A DNA stretch of 64,000 nucleotides from an uncultured Thermoanaerobaculia bacterium (GCA_964609835.1 CAZSTH010000001.1:34087-98086); one strand, 5' to 3'; counted from the stretch's first letter, positions 7,700-46,245 are shown. The notes: generated from the letters alone by a model not told the origin. Numbers and translations are program-made.

Positions 7700-8956
7700 T
7701 TACCGTCGATCGACCTCGCGACGCAAGCGCTCTGCCAGCCGCAGCAGCTCGGGATCTGCGGGAAATCGGTCGAGTCCGCGGGACAGTGTGACCGCCGCCT
7801 CGGCGAAGCGACCGGTTTCGAGCTGCACACTTGCCAACGCTGCGACGTGGCGGGGCTCGTCGGGCTCGATCTCGACCGCTCGTTCGAGCGCCAGCAAACC
7901 GTCGGCTTGGCGACCGGCCTGCAGCGCCACCGCCGCGATCCGGTGCAGGAGCCCGACATCCGCAGGCGCCATGCCCCACGCCCGGCGCAGGTGGTCGAGT
8001 GCCTCCTCGTGATCGCCGCGACGCAGCGCCAGGGCTGACAGCGTCACGTACGGCGCGGGCGACGTCCGCTCGAGCGCGATGGCCGCGCGGGCGGCCTCGA
8101 GCGCCCCGTCGCTGTCCCCGAGGCCGTCGCGGGCAACAGCGATCAACGACCAGGAACGCGCCCGCAGGGCGCGCGGGATACGTCTGTCCTGCGCCAGCGC
8201 CTCGAGACTCGCGAGTGCGCTCCGCGACTCTCCCGCCTCCAGCGCCCAGGCGGCCCGCTGGATCACGATCTCGGGGTGACCTCGGAGCGGTTCGAGGACC
8301 GCTGCCGCGCGGTCGCGCTCTCCGTCGGCCCGCAACGAACGCGCCAGCTCGAGGGCTGTCTGAACCCGGCGCCGCGGGTAGAGCGAGCCACGAAGCTCGA
8401 GACCCCAGCGTCGGACCCGGCCCTGGTCCTCCGGCGCCAGCTCCACCGGCGGCGATCGCAGTCCGGGCGCCACCGCGTAGGCGACCACCAGATCCTCGAT
8501 CGCGCGGTCGAGGGCCCCGACGTAGAGCAGCACCAGCGCTCGCAGCCGGCGCAGCGAAGGCGACAGCGGATCCAGCGCCACCGCCCGGTCGATGCGTGCG
8601 ACGGCCTCGGACGGGCGGTCTCCCAGAATCGCGGCATGGGAAAGGTGCGTGAAACCGGCCGGGTCGGTCGGCATCCACAGCGCCTGCAATCGTCCCAGCC
8701 GCGCGAGCCCAAGCACGACGGTCTCACGGGACGCACCGCCGAGATCCCGGACCGCCAGCCGCCGGGCCCGGTGGACGAACGACGGCAGCGCCGCCAACGG
8801 GTTTGCGGCGAGGGCCAGCGCACCCGCCTCGGGGTTGACCGAAGCCGTGCCGGCAACCGCCATCCAACCGAGCCATCCCATCGTGTCGACCGATGCCACG
8901 AAGGCGGCGAGGAGCGCGGCCGCGATCCACTGCAGGCGGCGTCGGCGCACCGTCAC
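7700..8956 (-). CDS. membrane-anchored TPR-repeat protein
   Basis: N-terminal TM segment (LQWIAAALLAAFVASV) followed by Ala/Leu/Arg-rich TPR-like repeats. The GTG start overlaps the murB stop (GTGA). Confidence 0.65.
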   Translation of the reverse strand: MTVRRRRLQWIAAALLAAFVASVDTMGWLGWMAVAGTASVNPEAGALALAANPLAALPSFVHRARRLAVRDLGGASRETVVLGLARLGRLQALWMPTDPAGFTHLSHAAILGDRPSEAVARIDRAVALDPLSPSLRRLRALVLLYVGALDRAIEDLVVAYAVAPGLRSPPVELAPEDQGRVRRWGLELRGSLYPRRRVQTALELARSLRADGERDRAAAVLEPLRGHPEIVIQRAAWALEAGESRSALASLEALAQDRRIPRALRARSWSLIAVARDGLGDSDGALEAARAAIALERTSPAPYVTLSALALRRGDHEEALDHLRRAWGMAPADVGLLHRIAAVALQAGRQADGLLALERAVEIEPDEPRHVAALASVQLETGRFAEAAVTLSRGLDRFPADPELLRLAERLRREVDRR

Positions 8957-9945
8957 GGCTCCACCGCCCGCCCGTCCTTATCGACGAAGCAGAGGGTGGT
9001 CACGATCTCGCGGCCGGTTCGCTCCGCGACCCGCTGTCGGATCAAGCGCACGAGCTGGCGGACCTCGTCGGCGCGCGACGACCTCGCTGTCGTCATGAGG
9101 TTGAGGTCGTGGTTCGACAAACGCACGCCACCGACCGCCAGGTTGCCGCAGTCCGCGCGCTCCAACAACTCTTCGGCCGGCACGCCCTCCGCCGGCAGGA
9201 AGGCGGGGCCGGCGCATCGTGGCTGGCGGGGCGGGCGGGATGGAGCTCTGGTCGGCCCGGACGATCCAGTGGGTTGGGAAGACGCCGCCAGGTGCAGCCG
9301 GGCGCGTACGATGATCCGCCGCTCCATCGCCAGCCGCAGTTCAGCCGTGCCGCGCGGTCTCGGGGAGAGCGCCACCCGCTCTATCGGCGCCCCGGGGCGC
9401 GCGAGGTCGACCCAGTCGAGCAATCCGTCGAGGGTCCCGGCCCCCGCGCTCGTCGCCCAGGCAGCCCCGCCCACCGAACCACTCTCCGCCATCAGCCGAT
9501 CGAGGCCGGAGATGCCGGTTCGTGCCGCGGCGTGGGACACCTGTGCCAGGTTGGCACCGCCTCCGGCGACCGCACCGTCGAGGTCGAGCTCCCACAGTGC
9601 GAGCTGGCCGGCAAGAGTGATGACCGGCACTCTGAGCCCGGCGTTCGGCGGCACCAGCCGGCTGCCGGCGCCGAGCACGAGCCATCGCAGACCGTGGGCG
9701 GCAAGCAGGTCGAGAACCCGCTGGAGCCCGTCAGCACTGCGACATCGGATCAGCAGGTCGGCAACGCCACCGATGCCGAGACCTGTCCAGGCTCGCAGGT
9801 CGACCCGATCGTGGACCTCGGGATCGCCTCGCTCGCGAAGATCGCGCAGGTGCTTTCGGAGGGTCGGGAGACCGTCTCGCAAGAGAAATTCACCGCAGTC
9901 TGAAATTCTGGCATGCCCTTTGCGTGTTCGCCGAGTGCCGGGCAC
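8953..9945 (-). CDS. murB: UDP-N-acetylenolpyruvoylglucosamine reductase
   Basis: LRAWTGLGIGGVADLLI...LVLGAGSRLV...GISGLDRLMAESGSVGGAAW and C-terminal SRADEVRQLVRLIRQRV match the MurB layout. The true start is uncertain: GTG 9945, or downstream TTG 9882. Confidence 0.8.
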   Translation of the reverse strand: MPGTRRTRKGHARISDCGEFLLRDGLPTLRKHLRDLRERGDPEVHDRVDLRAWTGLGIGGVADLLIRCRSADGLQRVLDLLAAHGLRWLVLGAGSRLVPPNAGLRVPVITLAGQLALWELDLDGAVAGGGANLAQVSHAAARTGISGLDRLMAESGSVGGAAWATSAGAGTLDGLLDWVDLARPGAPIERVALSPRPRGTAELRLAMERRIIVRARLHLAASSQPTGSSGPTRAPSRPPRQPRCAGPAFLPAEGVPAEELLERADCGNLAVGGVRLSNHDLNLMTTARSSRADEVRQLVRLIRQRVAERTGREIVTTLCFVDKDGRAVEP

Positions 9946-9970
9946 ACAACGACCTGGTATACGACATCAT
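9890..9970 (-). CDS. possible 26-aa leader ORF (MMSYTRSLCARHSANTQRACQNFRLR) overlapping the murB 5' end
   Basis: ATGATG is preceded by the longest purine Shine-Dalgarno tract in the window (AGGAGGAAGGAGGAGG, complement of 9972..9987). It ends 7 nt before a possible murB TTG start. No homology evidence. Confidence 0.25.
   Translation of the reverse strand: MMSYTRSLCARHSANTQRACQNFRLR
9909..9924 (+). promoter_or_regulatory. sigma-54 (-24/-12) promoter
   Basis: TGGCATG-CCCT-TTGCG matches TGGCAYG-N4-TTGCW, with GG at 9910-9911 and GC at 9922-9923 at exact consensus spacing. It is on the strand opposite the surrounding genes, adjacent to a sigma-54 activator gene. Confidence 0.5.
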
Positions 9971-10012
9971 ACCTCCTCCTTCCTCCTGCGGGCTCCGGCC
10001 CGCACTTTTTTT
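9935..10012 (+). ncRNA. candidate sigma-54-dependent small antisense RNA (about 75 nt)
   Basis: Bounded by the sigma-54 promoter (predicted TSS near 9935) and the intrinsic terminator. It contains a 5' hairpin GUGC-CGG-GCAC and a CU-rich stretch ACCUCCUCCUUCCUCCU complementary to the minus-strand SD/AUG. Confidence 0.4.
9987..10012 (+). terminator. rho-independent terminator
   Basis: TGCGGGC-TCCG-GCCCGCA stem-loop, then C plus T7 (10006..10012). The T run follows the hairpin only on the plus strand. It ends 5 nt before the complement of the activator's stop codon. Confidence 0.6.
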
Positions 10013-10016
10013 GGCG

Positions 10017-13000
10017 TCACGCCATCCCCGGATTCTGGAGGCCGAGCTGCCGGAGATGGTACAGCAGCGCCTGGCGCGAGATCCCGAGTTCGCGAGCGGT
10101 CGCACTCCGGTTGCCGCCGTGACGGCGCAGGGCGGCGGTCAGATAGGCGATTCGGAAGTCCCGCTGTGCCTCGTCCCACGCCTTGACCGGGCCCTCCGGC
10201 GACGTTCCGATCGGGAGGTGATCGCTCCGCACGACTCCGCCGTCAGCCCGTACCATCGCCACCTCGACCGCCTTCTGGAGCTCGCGTGCGTTGCCCGGCC
10301 AGTGGTAGCGGCCGAGCGCCGCTTTCGCCTCCGCCGACCACCGCACCGGCTGTAGCCCGTGGAGGCGGACTGCGTCGCGCTCGAACCGTTCGGCGAGGAG
10401 GCTGATGTCGTCGCGACGCTCGCGCAACGGGGGGATGACGAGCGGACACATCGCCAGTCGGTAATAGAGGTCGTGGCGGAAACGCCCCTCTCGAACCCGC
10501 GCTTCGAGGTCACGGTTGGTGGCGGAGAGGATTCGCACGTCGACCGCCACGACGCCATCGGCGCCGACCGGCCGGACCTCCCGGCTCTCCAGAAACCGCA
10601 ACAGCTTGACCTGCAGCGGCGGATCGAGGTCGCCGATCTCGTCCAGAAACAGGGTGCCCCCGTCTGCCGCCATCACCAGACCCCGGCGGGAGCGATCGGC
10701 CCCGGTGAACGCGCCGCGAACCGAACCGAAAAGCTCGGACTCCAGCAGACTCGATGAAATCGCGTTGACGTTGACGGCCACGAACGAGCCCCGGCGCCCG
10801 GAGAGCCGGTGGAGTGCCCGCGCCGCCACTTCCTTGCCGACTCCGGTCTCGCCGAGGATCACGATCGGGAGGTGGCTCGGCCCGAGGGACCTGAGATCCC
10901 GGCGGACCGTCCGGGCGCCGGCCGAGGCACCTGCAAAGCCGGTGTCGCCTCCGTCGTCGTCATCCGCCTCGTCCGGCCTCGCCGGCGCGAAGACAGCCAC
11001 CAGGCCCTTGACGAGGGTCCAGGCGGGGTCGTCGGTCACCTCGCCACCGAGAGGAACCAGCACGACGCTGCCGGAACGGACCTCGGTACCGGTGCCTCCT
11101 GTTCCGTGGTGCCACAGAACGTCGCCGGACCTCCCGTCTCGCACCTCGAGGCCGGTCACGCCGAGGCTCTGCACCAGCGGCTCCGCCAGCTTCCGATCGA
11201 GGTCAGACCATGATCCCTTCTCCACCACCCGCGCCATCGCGGCGACCACATCCGACCGTCCCTGCTCGCACAGCCGCTCGGCCCACCCGTGGAGACCGGC
11301 CGCGCGCAGCGCGTCAACGGCACGCACCCGAACACCCGGGTCGATCGATACCGCGCTGCCGCCGACCCGCTGCGCCAACGCCACCGCCAGAGCCTTCGCA
11401 GCGGAACCCGTCCTGCCGACCTCGGGATCCCCGGCCGGCTCGGTCGAAGCCGCCTCCACGCACCTCGCCGCCACGGCCACTCCCCACGCATCGTCATCGA
11501 CAGTTGTCGGCTCGCGCCCCTCCATCGCGTCCACCAGCGTGGTCCAGACACGTCCCTCCAGTCCGCCCGCTGCGAGGTGGCGCCTCGCCTCATCGAAGCG
11601 ACCCTCCAGCACCTCAGCCGCGCCCTGCAACAGGGCCAGCCCTTCCCCGACCGCGGGGCTGCCGACGTCGGCCATCGTCTTGAACTCGTCGAGCAGCGTC
11701 CGAAACCGCGCCTCGTCGCCGACTGCCAGCGCGAGCCGGCAGAACTCCCCGGTGACGAACAGGCTGTCGGCCTCCCCCGCGGCGAGCAGCTGCAGGCGCT
11801 CCTCTGCCTGCCGGACCCGAAGCTGGTCCACATCGGCCACCGCCAGGTTGAAGACCGCGATCCGCGTCGCGTGGCGGAACCCGGCGGCCTGCAGCAGGCG
11901 GAGCGCACGCAGCTGGTGAAGCTCCGCGCGCCGGCTCCAGCCGGCGGCGATCGAGGCCGCGCCGAGATCGTTCTCGATCACCCCACACCGTCCCGGGCCA
12001 AGCTCCTCGTCGAGCAGACGTGCAAGCATTCGAACCGCGCTGCGGGGGCGTCCGGAGTCGACCAGGTGCAGGGCGCACCGGTACATGATCCGGCCCACGA
12101 GCTCAGGATGACCGCCCGCGATCTCCCGGCGCCAGCCACGGTCTCGTAGCCGCTCGGGCGTGTCGATCGCCGCGAGGTCGATCTCGAGACGTCTGTGCAA
12201 AGGTCCCGAGAGCTTCTTCAAGCGCCCGCGAAGCTGAGAGCGCATCGCGGCGGCAGCGGCCGCGTCACCGCGACGACTGCGCAGCAGCAACTGCCGCGCT
12301 GCGATCTCCGCGGCCACCCGGTCCGCACCAGCGGCTTCCACCGTATCCTGATCCACGAACCAGGTATCGGCCCGACGGTCGAGACAGCCGATCCAGCCCT
12401 CCAGTGCCGGACGGTCGGCATCGGCGGCGCCCGAGCACATGGCCCTGGCGCCGGAGAGATCCAGGACCGAGAGGCAGGACTCGGAAGCCAGGGCCGCGAG
12501 CCGGGGCCCGAGCGCGGTAGGATCGGCGGTCACCAGCAGGTCGCGAACCGTGGCACCGTCCAGGCCATTCAGCCGGTCCCGGGCCCACGACGCCAGGTTG
12601 TCGGTATCGCCGGATGCCAACGCCTGGTGAAGCAGCCGCCGCGGATCCTCTTCGGGATACAGATCTGCGACCGTGCCGTGGAGCGGGCCGGAGCGCATCA
12701 CTCCCGGCTGGGGGAGGCGCCACCGTGCGCGGCCGGTGATGACCTCGAGACCCGCCGCCGCCTGCTCCAGCTCGCCGAGCGTCAGCCCGCAGTGGAGAGC
12801 CACGAAGGCGGGCGGCAGCCCGTCTGGATCCAGCCGCAGGATCTCCTCCAGTCGATCGCTCGGCCCTCGGTCCCCGACCGAGATTCCGGCGGGCGCGGGA
12901 GATTCGAAAAGACGACGGGCGGCTGCCGTCAAAGCCAAGCGGTCGCTCTCGTCGAGCGGATCGAAGCGGCCGTTGCGCTGGTCGACGGCCTTTCGCGACG

Positions 13001-13877
13001 CCTCGGGATCCGGGCCGGCCACCACCAGGTGGCGTCCAAGGTGCTCGCCATCGACGCCCGGCGGCGCAGGCGGATGCCACCCGGGCGGAAACCGGCCGAT
13101 CGCAACCGCGCTGCCACCCCCGGCCCGCGTCCACCGCGACAGCGCAGCCAGCTCGCGGGGGCCGAACTCTCCGGCCAGGATCAGGAGCCCGCTTCCACCG
13201 TCCCCCACCGGGAGCGGCAGCCCGCGTGCATTTCCTGCCTCTCGCACAAGGGCCGAAGATCCGCGCCTGCGGAAAGCCGCCCACAGGCTCACAGCCAGAC
13301 GGCGGGCGAGCGCCGGTCGTGGAACATCCCAGTAGCTGGTGGCCCCCTGCTCCGGCGGCGGCACCGGGTCCCATCGCAGCAACCACAGGCTGCGGGCGGT
13401 CGAGGGATCGAGCGGGCGCGGCAGGTCGGCAAGCTGACGGGCGAGAGCCCGGGAGAGGAACAGGCCCGGCTCACCCCGCTCGACGTCGATCGCGGCCGGC
13501 CTCAGTCCGGCGACTTCGGCGATCGACTCGATGACCGAACGGCGCATGGTTTCCGCGGCGGCCTGTCCCCCGCCGAGGCGCGCCGCCACGCGCGTCAACG
13601 ATACCGGATATCCACCCAGGCGGGCCTGAACTCCGTCATGGGAGCGGATGACCACGGCCTCGCGGAAACCGCGTCGGCCGATCCAGAGGTCGAACTCGGC
13701 CAGCAGTGCCGCTGCAGCCGTCAACTGGACTGCGATGCGGTACCGATCGAGGCGGCCGAGACGTACACCGGCGAGCGGCTCGCCCACCGGTGCCAGGGTC
13801 GGGTGGCCGTCGCCGATCTCCGGGACCGGCACCGCCGGGTGCTCCACGAGCAGCGCGGCGGGCTCGGGCAGCCTCAT
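10017..13877 (-). CDS. sigma-54-dependent transcriptional activator (bEBP) with very large N-terminal region
   Basis: The C-terminal ~310 aa carry Walker A GETGVGKE, an intact GAFTGA loop (SVRGAFTGAD), LFLDEIGD, HWPGNARELQ and a Fis-type HTH (SATARELGISRQALLYHLRQLGL). Start set to ATG 13877, which overlaps the aroA stop (ATGA). The ORF-track start at 13943 would overlap aroA by 70 nt. Confidence 0.9.
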   Translation of the reverse strand: MRLPEPAALLVEHPAVPVPEIGDGHPTLAPVGEPLAGVRLGRLDRYRIAVQLTAAAALLAEFDLWIGRRGFREAVVIRSHDGVQARLGGYPVSLTRVAARLGGGQAAAETMRRSVIESIAEVAGLRPAAIDVERGEPGLFLSRALARQLADLPRPLDPSTARSLWLLRWDPVPPPEQGATSYWDVPRPALARRLAVSLWAAFRRRGSSALVREAGNARGLPLPVGDGGSGLLILAGEFGPRELAALSRWTRAGGGSAVAIGRFPPGWHPPAPPGVDGEHLGRHLVVAGPDPEASRKAVDQRNGRFDPLDESDRLALTAAARRLFESPAPAGISVGDRGPSDRLEEILRLDPDGLPPAFVALHCGLTLGELEQAAAGLEVITGRARWRLPQPGVMRSGPLHGTVADLYPEEDPRRLLHQALASGDTDNLASWARDRLNGLDGATVRDLLVTADPTALGPRLAALASESCLSVLDLSGARAMCSGAADADRPALEGWIGCLDRRADTWFVDQDTVEAAGADRVAAEIAARQLLLRSRRGDAAAAAAMRSQLRGRLKKLSGPLHRRLEIDLAAIDTPERLRDRGWRREIAGGHPELVGRIMYRCALHLVDSGRPRSAVRMLARLLDEELGPGRCGVIENDLGAASIAAGWSRRAELHQLRALRLLQAAGFRHATRIAVFNLAVADVDQLRVRQAEERLQLLAAGEADSLFVTGEFCRLALAVGDEARFRTLLDEFKTMADVGSPAVGEGLALLQGAAEVLEGRFDEARRHLAAGGLEGRVWTTLVDAMEGREPTTVDDDAWGVAVAARCVEAASTEPAGDPEVGRTGSAAKALAVALAQRVGGSAVSIDPGVRVRAVDALRAAGLHGWAERLCEQGRSDVVAAMARVVEKGSWSDLDRKLAEPLVQSLGVTGLEVRDGRSGDVLWHHGTGGTGTEVRSGSVVLVPLGGEVTDDPAWTLVKGLVAVFAPARPDEADDDDGGDTGFAGASAGARTVRRDLRSLGPSHLPIVILGETGVGKEVAARALHRLSGRRGSFVAVNVNAISSSLLESELFGSVRGAFTGADRSRRGLVMAADGGTLFLDEIGDLDPPLQVKLLRFLESREVRPVGADGVVAVDVRILSATNRDLEARVREGRFRHDLYYRLAMCPLVIPPLRERRDDISLLAERFERDAVRLHGLQPVRWSAEAKAALGRYHWPGNARELQKAVEVAMVRADGGVVRSDHLPIGTSPEGPVKAWDEAQRDFRIAYLTAALRRHGGNRSATARELGISRQALLYHLRQLGLQNPGMA

Positions 13878-15148
13878 CCCTCGCCGGGCCCGACCAGCTT
13901 CTCCCAGGTGCTCCAGAAGTCCGGAAACGACTTGCTGACGCACTCGGGGTCGTCGAGCTCGAGCGGTCCGACCGCCAGCGCAGCCACCGCCATCGCCATC
14001 GCCACCCGGTGATCACCGGCCGAGGTCACCCGCGGCGACGGACCGGGAGTGGGCCGCATCGGCGAGTGGACCTCGATCTCGGACTCGCGGACGGTGAGAC
14101 CCGCCCCCAGTCGTCCCAGATTCCGCACCATCACCGTCAGGCGATCACTCTCCTTGTGCTGCAGGTTCTCCAGCCCGGTCAATCGAGAGCCGGCAGGCGC
14201 ACAGGCCGCGACCACCATCAGCGGCGGAAACAGGTCCGGCGTCTGCTTGAGGTCGGCGACCACAGCCGACCTCACCGGCCCCCTGGCCGCGAGGTAGTTC
14301 TGCCTCCAGTCGGCGCCGAGCCCGGCCGCGGTCAAGACATCGAGGATCGCGCGGTCGCCCTGGCGGCTGACCGCATCCAGGGGCCCCATCTCGACCTGAC
14401 CACCGGCGATCGCCGCGGCCGCCATCATCATGGCGGCCGCCGACCAGTCGCCCTCGACCTCGTACAACGCCAGGCGCAACGGACCGGGGGCGACCCGCCA
14501 CCACCGGCGGTCGTTGTCGACGATGACGCCGCCACCGAACGACCGCAGCACGTCTTCGGTGAGATCCAGGTAGGGTGCGGAGGGCAGCTCGCCCACCACC
14601 TGAAGGTCGATCCCCTGCTTCATGAGGGGCGCCGCCAGCACCAGCGAGGTCACGAATTGAGAGGACACCTGCGGTCTGATCGTCGCCTGTCCGCCCTTCA
14701 TTTCGCGTCCCTCGATGGACATCGGCAGCCGCCCGTTCTCGGTCGCGATCTCCGCACCCAGGGACCGCAGGGTCTCCACCAGGGGCGCCATCGGCCGTTC
14801 CCGCAGGCGGGGACTGCCGTCGAGCTCGTAACGCCCGGGGCTCGCCGCGAGCAGGCCGAGGAGCAACCGAGCGCCGGTACCCGAATCGCCGATGTCGATC
14901 CGGACAGCACCCTCGGGGAGGGTTCGACCTCCGACCTCGAGCTCCCGTCCCCAGTCGACCTTCCAGCCGGCGGTGGTGAGCGCGGCGGCCAGCGCCCGGG
15001 TGTCATCGCAGTCGAGCGGCGAGGTCACGATCCCACCGTCGGCCACGGCGGCGGCGATCAGGGCGCGGTTGGTCAAGCTCTTCGACGTCGGCAGCGTCAC
15101 CGAGCTGCGGAAGCTCGTGCGCGGTCCCGGCAGCACCATTGATGTCAT
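13874..15148 (-). CDS. aroA: 3-phosphoshikimate 1-carboxyvinyltransferase (EPSP synthase)
   Basis: LPTSKSLTNRALIAAAVADG...GDHRVAMAMAVAAL matches the EPSPS pattern. Start trimmed to ATG 15148 (MTSMVLPG) with a GGGGAGGA SD. Confidence 0.9.
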   Translation of the reverse strand: MTSMVLPGPRTSFRSSVTLPTSKSLTNRALIAAAVADGGIVTSPLDCDDTRALAAALTTAGWKVDWGRELEVGGRTLPEGAVRIDIGDSGTGARLLLGLLAASPGRYELDGSPRLRERPMAPLVETLRSLGAEIATENGRLPMSIEGREMKGGQATIRPQVSSQFVTSLVLAAPLMKQGIDLQVVGELPSAPYLDLTEDVLRSFGGGVIVDNDRRWWRVAPGPLRLALYEVEGDWSAAAMMMAAAAIAGGQVEMGPLDAVSRQGDRAILDVLTAAGLGADWRQNYLAARGPVRSAVVADLKQTPDLFPPLMVVAACAPAGSRLTGLENLQHKESDRLTVMVRNLGRLGAGLTVRESEIEVHSPMRPTPGPSPRVTSAGDHRVAMAMAVAALAVGPLELDDPECVSKSFPDFWSTWEKLVGPGEG

Positions 15149-15176: not shown

Positions 15177-15935
15177 TTATTGTATCTCCGGTACCGGCCA
15201 CGAGGTCGGACACAGCTGCTGGTCCACCAACCGCCAGCCGCCATCCCCGTCCACCAGCACCGCCGTGCGGCACTCGAGCCACGCCGGAATGATCAGAGCC
15301 TCCCGGTCGCCCTCGGTGGTCCGCCATGTGGAGTGGAAGTGCCCCCAGAACACGACGTCGATACCGGCGTCCCACGCCGACCGCGCCGAGCGCCTGAGAT
15401 CGTGGAGGGGTTTGGTGTAGCGGAACTTGCGGTTGGTTTCGGCGAGCCGGGCCTCCATGGTGCGGACGATCGCTACAGCCACCGATTGCGGCAGCAGCCT
15501 CGCCCAGATCCGCGCGGGCGTCGATTTGGAAAGCCGCGACCAGAAGCGGTACCGAAGGTCGCGGCGGTTGACGAGGTCGCCGTGGTCGAGTCTGAATCGA
15601 ATGCCGCCGGAGGTGAACTCGAGCCGGCGACCGCTCCAGTCGATCTCCGCCGCGAGCTCGGGCGCATCGAGGAAGAAGTCACGGTTGCCCTCCACGATCG
15701 CCACCCGCGTCCCCTCCGTTCGCCGCAGCTCACGCCAGGCCGCCACGACCTCCCGAACCGGGGCGGTCCAGAACTTGGACATGCCGATCAGATACTGGAA
15801 GCCGTCGCCGAGGTAGACGATCTCGCCGCAGCCGGCGGCGACCGCCGACCGGATCAGGGCGATCATGGCCTCCACATCTCCGTCGGCCTGGCCGACGTGG
15901 GCGTCGGCGATGATGAGACGTTTCACGGCCGCCAT
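15177..15935 (-). CDS. lpxH: UDP-2,3-diacylglucosamine diphosphatase-like metallophosphoesterase
   Basis: Collinear with LpxH motifs: IIADAHVG, YLGDGFQYLIG, VEGNRDFF, DHGDL, WGHFH. The ORF-track entry 15177..16517 is trimmed to ATG 15935, because its upstream part is a shadow frame of serC. Confidence 0.75.
   Translation of the reverse strand: MAAVKRLIIADAHVGQADGDVEAMIALIRSAVAAGCGEIVYLGDGFQYLIGMSKFWTAPVREVVAAWRELRRTEGTRVAIVEGNRDFFLDAPELAAEIDWSGRRLEFTSGGIRFRLDHGDLVNRRDLRYRFWSRLSKSTPARIWARLLPQSVAVAIVRTMEARLAETNRKFRYTKPLHDLRRSARSAWDAGIDVVFWGHFHSTWRTTEGDREALIIPAWLECRTAVLVDGDGGWRLVDQQLCPTSWPVPEIQ
15179..15184 (-). promoter_or_regulatory. putative internal -10 box TACAAT upstream of aroA
   Basis: TACAAT overlaps the lpxH stop codon TAA and lies 30 nt upstream of aroA ATG 15148. 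Confidence 0.35.
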
Positions 15936-15964
15936 GGTAGCCCACCGGCCGGGCGGGCTCGCGC

Positions 15965-17053
15965 TCAACCGTGGTCCGCGGCGAAGCGCTCCATGAACCC
16001 GGCCAAGGTCTCGACCCCCTCGATCGGCATCGCGTTGTAGATCGATGCGCGGCAGCCACCGACCGATCGGTGGCCCTTGAGTCCCACCATCCCCGCAGCC
16101 TTGGCGTCGGAGACGAAACGTGCCTCCAGCTCCTCGGACGGCAACCGGAAGACGACGTTCATGAACGAGCGGCTCCCCTCCTCGACCGGGCAGCGGTAGA
16201 AGTCCGGATGGGTGGCGATGACGTCGTACAGGCGGCCGCCTTTGGCCCGGTTGCGCTCCTCCATCGCGCGCAGCCCACCCTCCTCTTTCACCCACTGGAG
16301 GACGTTGCGGACCATGTAGATCGCGAAAACTGGCGGTGTGTTGTAGAGCGACTCCTTGGCGGCGTAGGTCGCGTACGAGAGCATGCTGGGGAGGCGCTGG
16401 TTGGCCGTGTCGAGCCACGATTTCCGGAGCACCACAACGGTCACGCCCGCGGGCCCGATGTTCTTCTGGGCACCGGCGTAGATGAGGTGGAAGCGGTTGG
16501 CGTCGAAGGGTCGCCACATGAAGTCCGACGACATGTCGGCGACCAGCGGGACCGACCCGGTGTCCGGGAAATCGTGATATTGGGTCCCCTTGATCGTGTT
16601 GTTCGAGGTGATATGGACGTACGCCGCATCCGGGTCGAAGTCGCAGTCGCCTGCCGCCGGGATGCGTGTGAACCCGTCATCCTCGCTCGAGCCCGCGGTA
16701 CGCCCGCGCGCCACGATCTTCGCCTCCTTGAGCGCCTTGGTCGACCAGGTTCCGGTGTTGACGTAATCCGCGGACCCACCTTCGGGAATGAAGTTCATCG
16801 GCAGCATCGCGAACTGAAGTGACGCGCCGCCCTGGATGAACAGCACCTGATGGTCGTCGTCGAGACCGAGCAGCTCGGCCACGAGGTCCATCGCCTGATG
16901 GTGGACGGCGTCATATTCGGGCGATCGGTGCGACGTCTCCATCACCGACATCCCGGTGCCCTCCCAGTCGGGGATCTCGGCTTCGGCTCGCTCGAGGGCG
17001 GGTCTCGGCAGCGTGGCGGGACCGGCGTAGAAGTTCCAGATTCGGCTCATCAC
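15965..17053 (-). CDS. serC: phosphoserine aminotransferase
   Basis: NFYAGPATLP...METSHRSPEY...FIQGGASLQF...GLKGHRSVGGCRASIYNA are SerC signatures. Confidence 0.9.
   Translation of the reverse strand: MMSRIWNFYAGPATLPRPALERAEAEIPDWEGTGMSVMETSHRSPEYDAVHHQAMDLVAELLGLDDDHQVLFIQGGASLQFAMLPMNFIPEGGSADYVNTGTWSTKALKEAKIVARGRTAGSSEDDGFTRIPAAGDCDFDPDAAYVHITSNNTIKGTQYHDFPDTGSVPLVADMSSDFMWRPFDANRFHLIYAGAQKNIGPAGVTVVVLRKSWLDTANQRLPSMLSYATYAAKESLYNTPPVFAIYMVRNVLQWVKEEGGLRAMEERNRAKGGRLYDVIATHPDFYRCPVEEGSRSFMNVVFRLPSEELEARFVSDAKAAGMVGLKGHRSVGGCRASIYNAMPIEGVETLAGFMERFAADHG

Positions 17054-45859: not shown

Positions 45860-45872
<13 letters not shown>
45821..45872 (-). other. perfect 22-bp hairpin overlapping the 3' end of rnpB (terminator-like, no U tract)
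   Basis: The arms at 45821..45842 and 45851..45872 are exact reverse complements, with an 8-nt loop. The arm at 45860..45872 is also the 3' strand of RNase P helix P1. Confidence 0.7.

Positions 45873-46245
<373 letters not shown>

Follow-up and report, generated by a model that had tools for sequence, protein, structure and literature searches.

A giant sigma-54 activator with an uncatalogued N-terminal module, and the candidate small RNA paired with it in Thermoanaerobaculia

Sigma-54 activators, or bacterial enhancer-binding proteins (bEBPs), are textbook signal-gated AAA+ machines whose known sensor domains are small and few: REC, GAF, PAS, V4R, ACT or PRD modules of about 120-250 amino acids (aa), or none. 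A 64,000-nucleotide (nt) stretch of DNA from an uncultured Thermoanaerobaculia bacterium (GCA_964609835.1 CAZSTH010000001.1:34087-98086; hereafter the window, whose numbering is used throughout) encodes an activator of 1286 aa that had been singled out, in a first-pass annotation, for its very long N-terminus. What kind of module is this front end, and what does so large a regulator switch on? We find that the protein carries a sensor architecture unprecedented among bEBPs and is paired with an uncatalogued sigma-54-type candidate small RNA (sRNA) which, judging from their linkage, is probably what it switches on.

The activator and its N-terminal module

The minus-strand frame spans 10017..13943 (1308 open codons), and the ATG at 13877 gives the 1286-aa product (Table 1). 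Pfam recognises an AAA+ domain, lid and Fis-type helix-turn-helix (HTH) in its C-terminal third; Walker A (GETGVGKE) and Walker B (DEIGDL) are readable in the translation, and the GAFTGA loop (residues 1055-1060, nt 10698-10715) is intact and nearly invariant across the family. An AAA+ domain with both Walker motifs, an intact GAFTGA and a C-terminal HTH are features by which a bEBP is recognised, and all are present. No named bEBP equivalog in NCBIfam (NorR, AtoC, RtcR, NifA, NtrC, PrpR, TyrR and others) scored above its trusted cut-off (the best, NorR, reached 283 bits vs 476), and the equivalog matches cover the AAA+/HTH core only. No other GAFTGA protein was found in the 64 kb searched.

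Residues 1-975 matched no Pfam or NCBIfam family, even at E<=1, and searches of the N-terminus against PDB sequences, both with the single sequence and with profiles, returned nothing beyond weak tetratricopeptide repeat (TPR) signals and a designed repeat protein. In Pfam, TPR_12/TPR_19 matches appeared only in three of nine relatives (E about 0.01-0.04), and no TPR model exceeded its gathering score in the window's own protein, where the likeness to TPRs is structural only. An AlphaFold2 model of the N-terminus, built with a 49-sequence alignment, is continuous and confident over residues 1-965 (pLDDT 86.3, pTM 0.84). It is dominated by a solenoid of about 30 helices and ~500 aa, predicted at high confidence. 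The TPR proteins that Foldseek returned for the whole N-terminal model reach E 3.4e-6, with 6mfv, a STAND-TPR protein, and Rap peptide receptors among them. The ~500-aa TPR-like region corresponds to the C-terminal repeat sensor that is characteristic of STAND proteins and is here a presumed sensor. The small beta domain that follows the solenoid (residues ~905-965) matched nothing in Pfam.

Ahead of the solenoid, the model is mixed alpha/beta up to about residue 325, and a helix-helix-hairpin unit occupies residues 339-390. Since the whole-model search gave generic TPR proteins only, residues 1-395 were modelled separately (pLDDT 86.5). Foldseek found no match to this part at E<=1e-3; the best ranged from E 4.5e-3 to 0.2 and share one theme: NRC1 NB-ARC (4.5e-3), RuvB, TRIP13, Roq1 and RPP1, RFC subunits, NLRP3, an Avs5 STAND protein and a winged-helix domain. 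The Walker A pattern GxxxxGK[ST] is absent from the module; two of the 49 sequences contain it, at non-homologous positions, and the consensus of the beta1-alpha1 loop in the family is V-P-x-x-x-L-A-R. Nor is there a conserved Walker B in the module. Its most striking invariant motif is G261-x-F-P-x-G-W. On the predicted structure, we describe the module as STAND-shaped without nucleotide motifs, its membership of the STAND class not being established.

These results sort out what had been read from the sequence at first pass. The canonical bEBP C-terminal third is borne out by the Pfam domains, Walker motifs, GAFTGA and HTH_8. The exceptionally long N-terminus without a recognisable sensor domain likewise stands, as profile searches over residues 1-975 assigned no known sensor family and structure prediction over residues 1-965 gave mostly a TPR-like solenoid; its description as TPR-like and helical agrees with an alpha-solenoid predicted over most of the region. 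The proposed MalT/STAND layout is weakly supported: the AAA+/NB-ARC fold matches are weak though of one theme, none reaches E<=1e-3 and Walker A is missing. The stretch LLILAGEFGPRE, taken for a possible degenerate P-loop, has to be given up, for residues 231-242 do not occupy the P-loop position; in the model they run from a beta strand into the start of a helix, and only G236 is invariant.

A search with residues 1-975 returned about 90 clusters at 35-48% identity, nearly all of about 1270-1310 aa and of the same architecture; where named, they are called 'sigma-54 dependent transcriptional regulator' and come from Holophagae or Acidobacteriota metagenome-assembled genomes (MAGs). A profile of the module run against 1.84 billion representative proteins gave 111 matches, fragments included, which fall into close full-length proteins, fragments and a distant tier of 1241-1310 aa. 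Of the distant-tier proteins scanned with Pfam, all seven carry the sigma-54 AAA+ domain and lid, and five of the seven carry HTH_8 at E<=1e-5. No alternative output domain was seen among the full-length family members examined. Profiling of the architecture, a check proposed at first pass, thus yields 111 representatives of the module and a sigma-54 output in every full-length member examined. The genomes recovered in the scan described below place the lineage in Thermoanaerobaculia (Sulfomarinibacteraceae, Thermoanaerobaculaceae and relatives). The family defined by the 1286-aa protein is small and limited to Thermoanaerobaculia (Acidobacteriota), and the frame 10017..13877 is one cytoplasmic sigma-54 activator of that family. 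One metagenome contig (L020, 172-3781, + strand) encodes a 1203-aa protein in which residues 1-923 of the module run into a PHP-like C-terminus. This protein lacks an AAA+ domain, has no sRNA behind its gene and represents a rare alternative output if it is not a chimera of the assembly.

Table 1. Features of the activator locus and its surroundings, in window coordinates
Feature	Position	Strand	Basis
TPR protein (7700-8956) and murB-like gene (8953 to 9882 or 9945)	7700..9882	-	Pfam, NCBIfam, synteny
-24/-12 promoter TGGCATgccctTTGC (TGGCAT-N5-TTGC), facing the 3' end of the bEBP gene	9909..9923	+	Pattern search
Candidate sRNA, ~78 nt: 5' hairpin 9935-9960, unpaired C/U-rich stretch, terminator	9935..10012	+	
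Invariant seed ACCUCCUCCUUC, anti-Shine-Dalgarno-like, predicted single-stranded	9971..9982	+	
Intrinsic terminator, stem TGCGGGC/GCCCGCA and T7 run	9987..10012	+	Terminator scan
Sigma-54 activator (bEBP) coding sequence, 1286 aa	10017..13877	-	Open reading frame and start context; full-length homologues of same size
Fis-type HTH (HTH_8), residues 1245-1277	10047..10145	-	Pfam PF02954, E 3.6e-9
AAA+ lid (AAA_lid_14), residues 1152-1222	10212..10424	-	Pfam PF25601, E 3.4e-18
Sigma-54 interaction AAA+ domain, residues 983-1146	10440..10931	-	Pfam PF00158 (Sigma54_activat), E 2.9e-58
Small domain, four-stranded sheet and helix, residues ~905-965	10983..11165	-	Model; adjoins AAA+ core
TPR-like alpha-solenoid, residues ~399-904, presumed sensor/partner surface	11166..12683	-	Model, Foldseek
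Predicted alpha/beta region and winged-helix-like element, residues 1-395, degenerate AAA+/STAND-NOD-like	12693..13877	-	AlphaFold2, Foldseek
ATGA, overlap of activator start and aroA stop (...gagggATGAgg)	13874..13877	-	Sequence
aroA (3-phosphoshikimate 1-carboxyvinyltransferase), upstream operon partner	13874..15148	-	TIGR01356; Pfam EPSP_synthase

A conserved candidate small RNA converging on the activator gene

About 100 nt beyond the activator's stop codon, on the opposite strand, lies a promoter-like site of the -24/-12 type. A site of the form TGGCAYG-N4-TTGC had been mentioned at first pass and is indeed present at 9909-9923; what had not been connected with it is a conserved sRNA, the probable target of the activator. 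Reading along the plus strand, TGGCATgccctTTGC is followed by the hairpin GUGCCgGGCAC, by CAUCAUACCUCCUCCUUCCUCCU, and by a GC-rich hairpin with seven T's. We placed the 5' end of the RNA (9935) from the promoter geometry, and its terminator ends 5 nt short of the bEBP stop codon (10017). TGGCAC/T-N5-TTGC stands at a constant distance from the RNA in 26 of 26 protein-anchored loci that reach the region (L001, L002, 20 metagenome loci and L038-L041), and in all 26 the promoter-RNA unit lies on the strand opposite the activator, usually with a perfect TGGCAC-N5-TTGC.

At the nucleotide level the RNA is conserved far above the surrounding proteins, and ACCTCCTCCTTC is invariant in a 38-sequence alignment. 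The window holds a single copy (nhmmer E 2e-16, fold z -3.4), and 12 diverse members share a common three-part fold with z-scores of -1.5 to -5.4. Covariation supports both helices, with 92.4% of cells paired and compensatory double changes in eight of 12 pairs, values reached in none of 500 shuffles, while slid registers gave 27-46% paired; the terminator stem has compensatory changes in five of its seven pairs. The 12-nt seed core, by comparison, has a mean pairing probability of 0.037 over 104 unique sequences. The element has what would be expected of the gene of a sigma-54-dependent trans-acting sRNA: a correctly spaced -24/-12 promoter, structural conservation, a seed predicted to be unpaired and an intrinsic terminator. 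Rfam 15 contains no family for it (the only match, SorX, scored 16.8 bits against a gathering threshold of 46.6), and a literature search found nothing on the sRNA; searches for work on sigma-54 or sRNAs in Thermoanaerobaculia/Acidobacteria and on TPR/STAND bEBPs returned nothing relevant. On this comparative evidence, the ~78-nt candidate sRNA is uncatalogued, sigma-54-type and conserved across a class of Acidobacteria, and neither Rfam 15 nor the literature searched describes an earlier candidate for a sigma-54-dependent riboregulator from Acidobacteria.

A scan of 185,579 species genomes for TGGCAY-N5-TTGC-N35-65-ACCTCCTCCTTC gave 103 stretches, ~95 of them genuine, all from Thermoanaerobaculia-type MAGs and nearly always one per genome. 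Eight matches (L043, L065, L070, L075, L079, L080, L097, L143) were dropped as chance: they have no terminator and no nhmmer match, and most come from other phyla. A convergent bEBP core lies within 700 nt of the RNA 3' end in 70 of the ~95 and within 1.5 kb in four more; in five the contig ends too early to judge the neighbour. The partner activators take three forms, namely the close giant family, a distant giant tier (roughly 1300-1650 codons open) and short proteins of ~459 or ~320 aa, and the RNA subtype tracks the class of the adjoining activator. Because there are three partner forms with matched RNA subtypes, we regard the RNA-activator pair as the conserved unit and the giant sensor as a lineage-specific elaboration.

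The short partners (L056, L073, L084, L087, L144) are in effect natural 'deletion variants'; the ~459-aa relatives keep, of the N-terminus, only the small beta domain and the three helices before it (HMM positions ~865-972). Some of the MAGs with short partners are error-prone long-read assemblies, in which truncation by frameshift is possible. Another sRNA subtype, with the 5' hairpin AACCGGCC...GCCGG (L042, L051, L074, L078, L133, L135, L141), shows conserved A-rich sequence immediately before the -24 element and has no bEBP within its 8-kb piece.

What the pair may do, and competing explanations

Because a sigma-54 promoter is silent without a bEBP, the window's only bEBP lies 100 nt away and the pairing is class-wide, we suggest that this activator fires this promoter. 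The activator would be made with housekeeping genes, as the last member of a serA-serC-lpxH-like-aroA array, with its start codon tied to the stop of aroA. If it works like other bEBPs and like STAND/TPR switches, binding of a ligand or partner protein to the repeat surface would release the AAA+ domain, until then kept inactive by the front end. Remodelling of the sigma-54 holoenzyme by the AAA+ ring would follow at the promoter (9909-9923), as the linkage suggests, and the resulting ~78-nt RNA could pair through its exposed ACCUCCUCCUUC with the Shine-Dalgarno/start regions of mRNAs, altering their translation. As the seed complements the Shine-Dalgarno sequence and resembles the anti-Shine-Dalgarno motif of CcsR/NfeR1, repression of translation initiation is, by that analogy, the likely output. 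Taken whole, from housekeeping coexpression of a single gated activator to a seed that changes translation, this is the account that we favour, with some reserve. Within the window, 15 sites complement the seed with <=2 mismatches against 6.2 expected, their positions being uninformative. The seed also pairs with the activator's own translation start better than with random windows (median percentile 0.06), a result that is not specific, as any start bearing a Shine-Dalgarno sequence would behave alike.

Several observations count against this account. Neither rpoN nor an RpoN box is present in the 64-kb window, and near-consensus -24/-12 sites are not enriched there (6 vs 3.4 expected); the window's promoter itself has T rather than C at the sixth position of TGGCAC. 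The STAND-like Foldseek matches of residues 1-395 all lie above E 1e-3, with TM 0.18-0.26. Some lineages have a short linked activator of ~320-459 aa, so the giant N-terminus is not required for the pairing. About 16 genuine RNA copies have no activator within their 8-kb piece, and the linkage is therefore not obligatory. Finally, no enhancer (upstream activating sequence) could be defined upstream of the sRNA promoter from shared k-mers or alignments; the conserved upstream blocks are murB coding sequence, for example a stretch encoding EVHDRVDLRAWT on the other strand, and because the 250 nt upstream are murB coding in most loci, no enhancer can be claimed.

The strongest of the other explanations, which we hold to be unlikely while granting it real weight, is that the intergenic element acts mainly in cis. 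On the opposite strand, GGAGGAAGGAGGAGGU-AUG would serve as a strong ribosome-binding site and start of a short leader frame before murB, and the sRNA, instead of working in trans, would chiefly regulate the bEBP-murB-TPR transcript as its perfect antisense. Of 104 unique sequences, 92 have an AUG after the purine tract, and in the window a leader frame of 26 codons (9890-9970, - strand) has a strong Shine-Dalgarno sequence and ATGATG opposite the sRNA seed. This frame ends 8 nt before a possible TTG start of murB, and that TTG (9882) is probably the real start, because the longest murB frame (GTG 9945) crosses the sRNA promoter. The hairpin lacks a U-tract when read on the mRNA strand, which makes read-through from the bEBP gene into murB plausible. 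Yet the leader peptide is not conserved: where its frame was read through, in three loci, it spans 13, 15 or 26 codons, and 2-nt indels separate close relatives; given these frame-breaking indels and the unconserved length, we rank a small protein on the opposite strand low. RNA copies away from murB and the bEBP gene keep the seed and often lose the AUG, and the orientation of promoter, 5' hairpin and terminator suits a plus-strand RNA.

We judge it improbable, though a little less readily dismissed than the elaboration discussed below, that the activator has its targets elsewhere, for example among envelope/exopolysaccharide genes, and that a different bEBP fires the sRNA, the two being neighbours through a shared terminator region and co-inheritance. 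The missing enhancer and the RNA copies that stand alone would be explained in this way, and the count of bEBPs and sigma-54 promoters covers 64 kb of the genome. Against it, 74 species-level genomes keep the convergent adjacency, with activators of three architectures and protein identities as low as 35%; RNA subtypes go with activator classes, and the 1286-aa protein is the only bEBP in the window. Finally, that the long frame is an artefact, either two genes joined by sequencing error or a known sensor domain overlooked by profiles, is so improbable that it can be set aside: some relatives are split or fused in error-prone assemblies (P0089 and L103, P0091), but an uninterrupted frame of about 1270-1310 aa recurs in about 90 independent clusters, one continuous confident model covers residues 1-965, and Pfam, NCBIfam and PDB sequence searches of the N-terminus gave only weak TPR signals. 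The apparent aroA-bEBP fusion in P0091 was rejected, its gene call being riddled with frameshifts; like the calls in L103 (1022-5300), it is a fused or split artefact of a frameshift-rich assembly, and both confirm the adjacency to aroA all the same.

Returning to the account in which the activator fires the sRNA, it can be carried a step further, to a class-wide 'translation brake' in which a nucleotide-independent, STAND-shaped TPR sensor joined to a sigma-54 ATPase reads a metabolic or envelope signal and drives a ribosome-competing sRNA. The 3' end of 16S rRNA reads ...GAUCACCUCCUU..., and the exposed AUCAUACCUCCUCCUUC would mimic it and compete with ribosomes for many Shine-Dalgarno sites, the murB leader encoded opposite the sRNA among them. 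We offer this as speculation and rather doubt it; if true, it would represent a new mode of bEBP gating and a new logic of global translational control.

Known relatives and gene neighbourhood

Like the NtrC-family bEBPs NtrC1, NorR, XylR/DmpR and PspF, the protein has an AAA+ domain with GAFTGA, a lid and a C-terminal Fis-type HTH, and N-terminal gating of ATPase assembly would be expected here as well. It differs from them in its uncatalogued 975-aa module, composed of a predicted AAA+/STAND-like part, a TPR solenoid and a small beta domain. With the STAND regulators (MalT, large ATP-binding LuxR-family proteins, AfsR, PH0952 = 6mfv, NB-ARC/NLR proteins) it shares the order of parts, a predicted alpha/beta NTPase-like module, a winged-helix-like element and a long, presumed TPR-type sensor; in MalT, too, the C-terminus carries the DNA-binding output. 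Among the best Foldseek matches are 6mfv, NRC1, Roq1, RPP1, NLRP3 and Avs5. Unlike theirs, the N-terminal module here has neither Walker A nor a conserved Walker B, its fold matches are weak (best E 4.5e-3), and where those regulators have a simple DNA-binding or death-fold domain as output, this protein has an AAA+ ATPase with an HTH. Profile, Pfam/NCBIfam and PDB searches found no sequence-level relationship between the module and STAND regulators.

The genes for CrcZ, Qrr, GlmY and NrsZ adjoin those of their activators, and CbrB-CrcZ, LuxO-Qrr, GlrR-GlmY and NtrC-NrsZ resemble the pair described here in placing an sRNA with a -24/-12 promoter and an intrinsic terminator near a bEBP gene. 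The crcZ gene, which encodes a sigma-N-dependent sRNA, is directly activated by CbrB (PMC6296734), and LuxO is reported to act on the Qrr RNAs with sigma-54 (PMC4878744). The present pair differs from these in phylum, RNA sequence and fold, and its RNA has no Rfam match; the two genes converge and the RNA terminator adjoins the stop codon of the activator gene, and the activator is not a phosphorylated response regulator.

The alpha-proteobacterial anti-Shine-Dalgarno sRNAs of the cuckoo/CcsR family and NfeR1 carry CCUCCUCCC and show this motif in hairpin loops, often in repeated hairpins. As in those RNAs, the presumed seed here is a C/U-rich motif complementary to ribosome-binding sites (PMC4615179, PMC8034643, PMC10746234). 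The RNA in the window differs in having one invariant 12-nt copy, in an unpaired linker between the 5' hairpin and the terminator, in coming from an unrelated lineage and in matching no Rfam model.

A STAND-shaped TPR module of ~975 residues without nucleotide motifs extends the known repertoire of bEBP control, and the full-length protein, an N-terminal deletion and the natural 459-aa and ~320-aa relatives make up a defined construct set. We know of almost no characterised RNA regulators in Acidobacteria, and the linked RNA provides the regulator with a concrete, testable output. Since related RNA copies occur in MAGs assigned to Thermoanaerobaculum, a genus with a cultured species, the prediction may be testable in culture.

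The gene upstream of the activator is aroA (NCBIfam TIGR01356, 337 bits vs a cut-off of 287; murA scored just 34 bits), and a 4-nt [A/G/T]TGA overlap of the two genes is kept in 23 of 30 related loci, which bears out the translational coupling that had been proposed from the ATGA. The order DUF1015 - serA - serC - lpxH-like - aroA - activator - murB-like - TPR protein is found in most loci read, and SpoU (on the opposite strand) and a rhomboid gene recur farther downstream in several; some related loci have insertions or lack individual genes. With serA-serC-lpxH-like-aroA conserved in this order, the placement of the activator at the end of a serine/lipopolysaccharide/aromatic array also holds. 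Because both the aroA overlap and the synteny are conserved, we regard the activator as the tail of a housekeeping operon, a mode of expression that fits an always-present sensor under post-translational control. The TACAAT box reported upstream of aroA does exist, at 15184 (- strand), some 30 nt upstream of 15148, where aroA probably starts, but a single hexamer has no statistical weight, and a sigma-70 scan found no full promoter there.

On the activator strand, the murB-like and TPR-protein frames overlap by 4 nt (8953-8956, - strand; also 15204-15207 in L002); they are a second translationally coupled pair, kept in relatives. The murB-like and lpxH-like genes are both divergent. The best NCBIfam scores of the murB-like gene (8953-9945, - strand; 93 bits vs 259) and the lpxH-like gene (15177-16040, - strand; 50 vs 134) lie below the cut-offs, so the enzymatic identity of both is not secure. 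The 64-kb window contains no tRNA genes, and its only Rfam family above threshold is a class A RNase P RNA at 45863-46238 (- strand, 270 bits).

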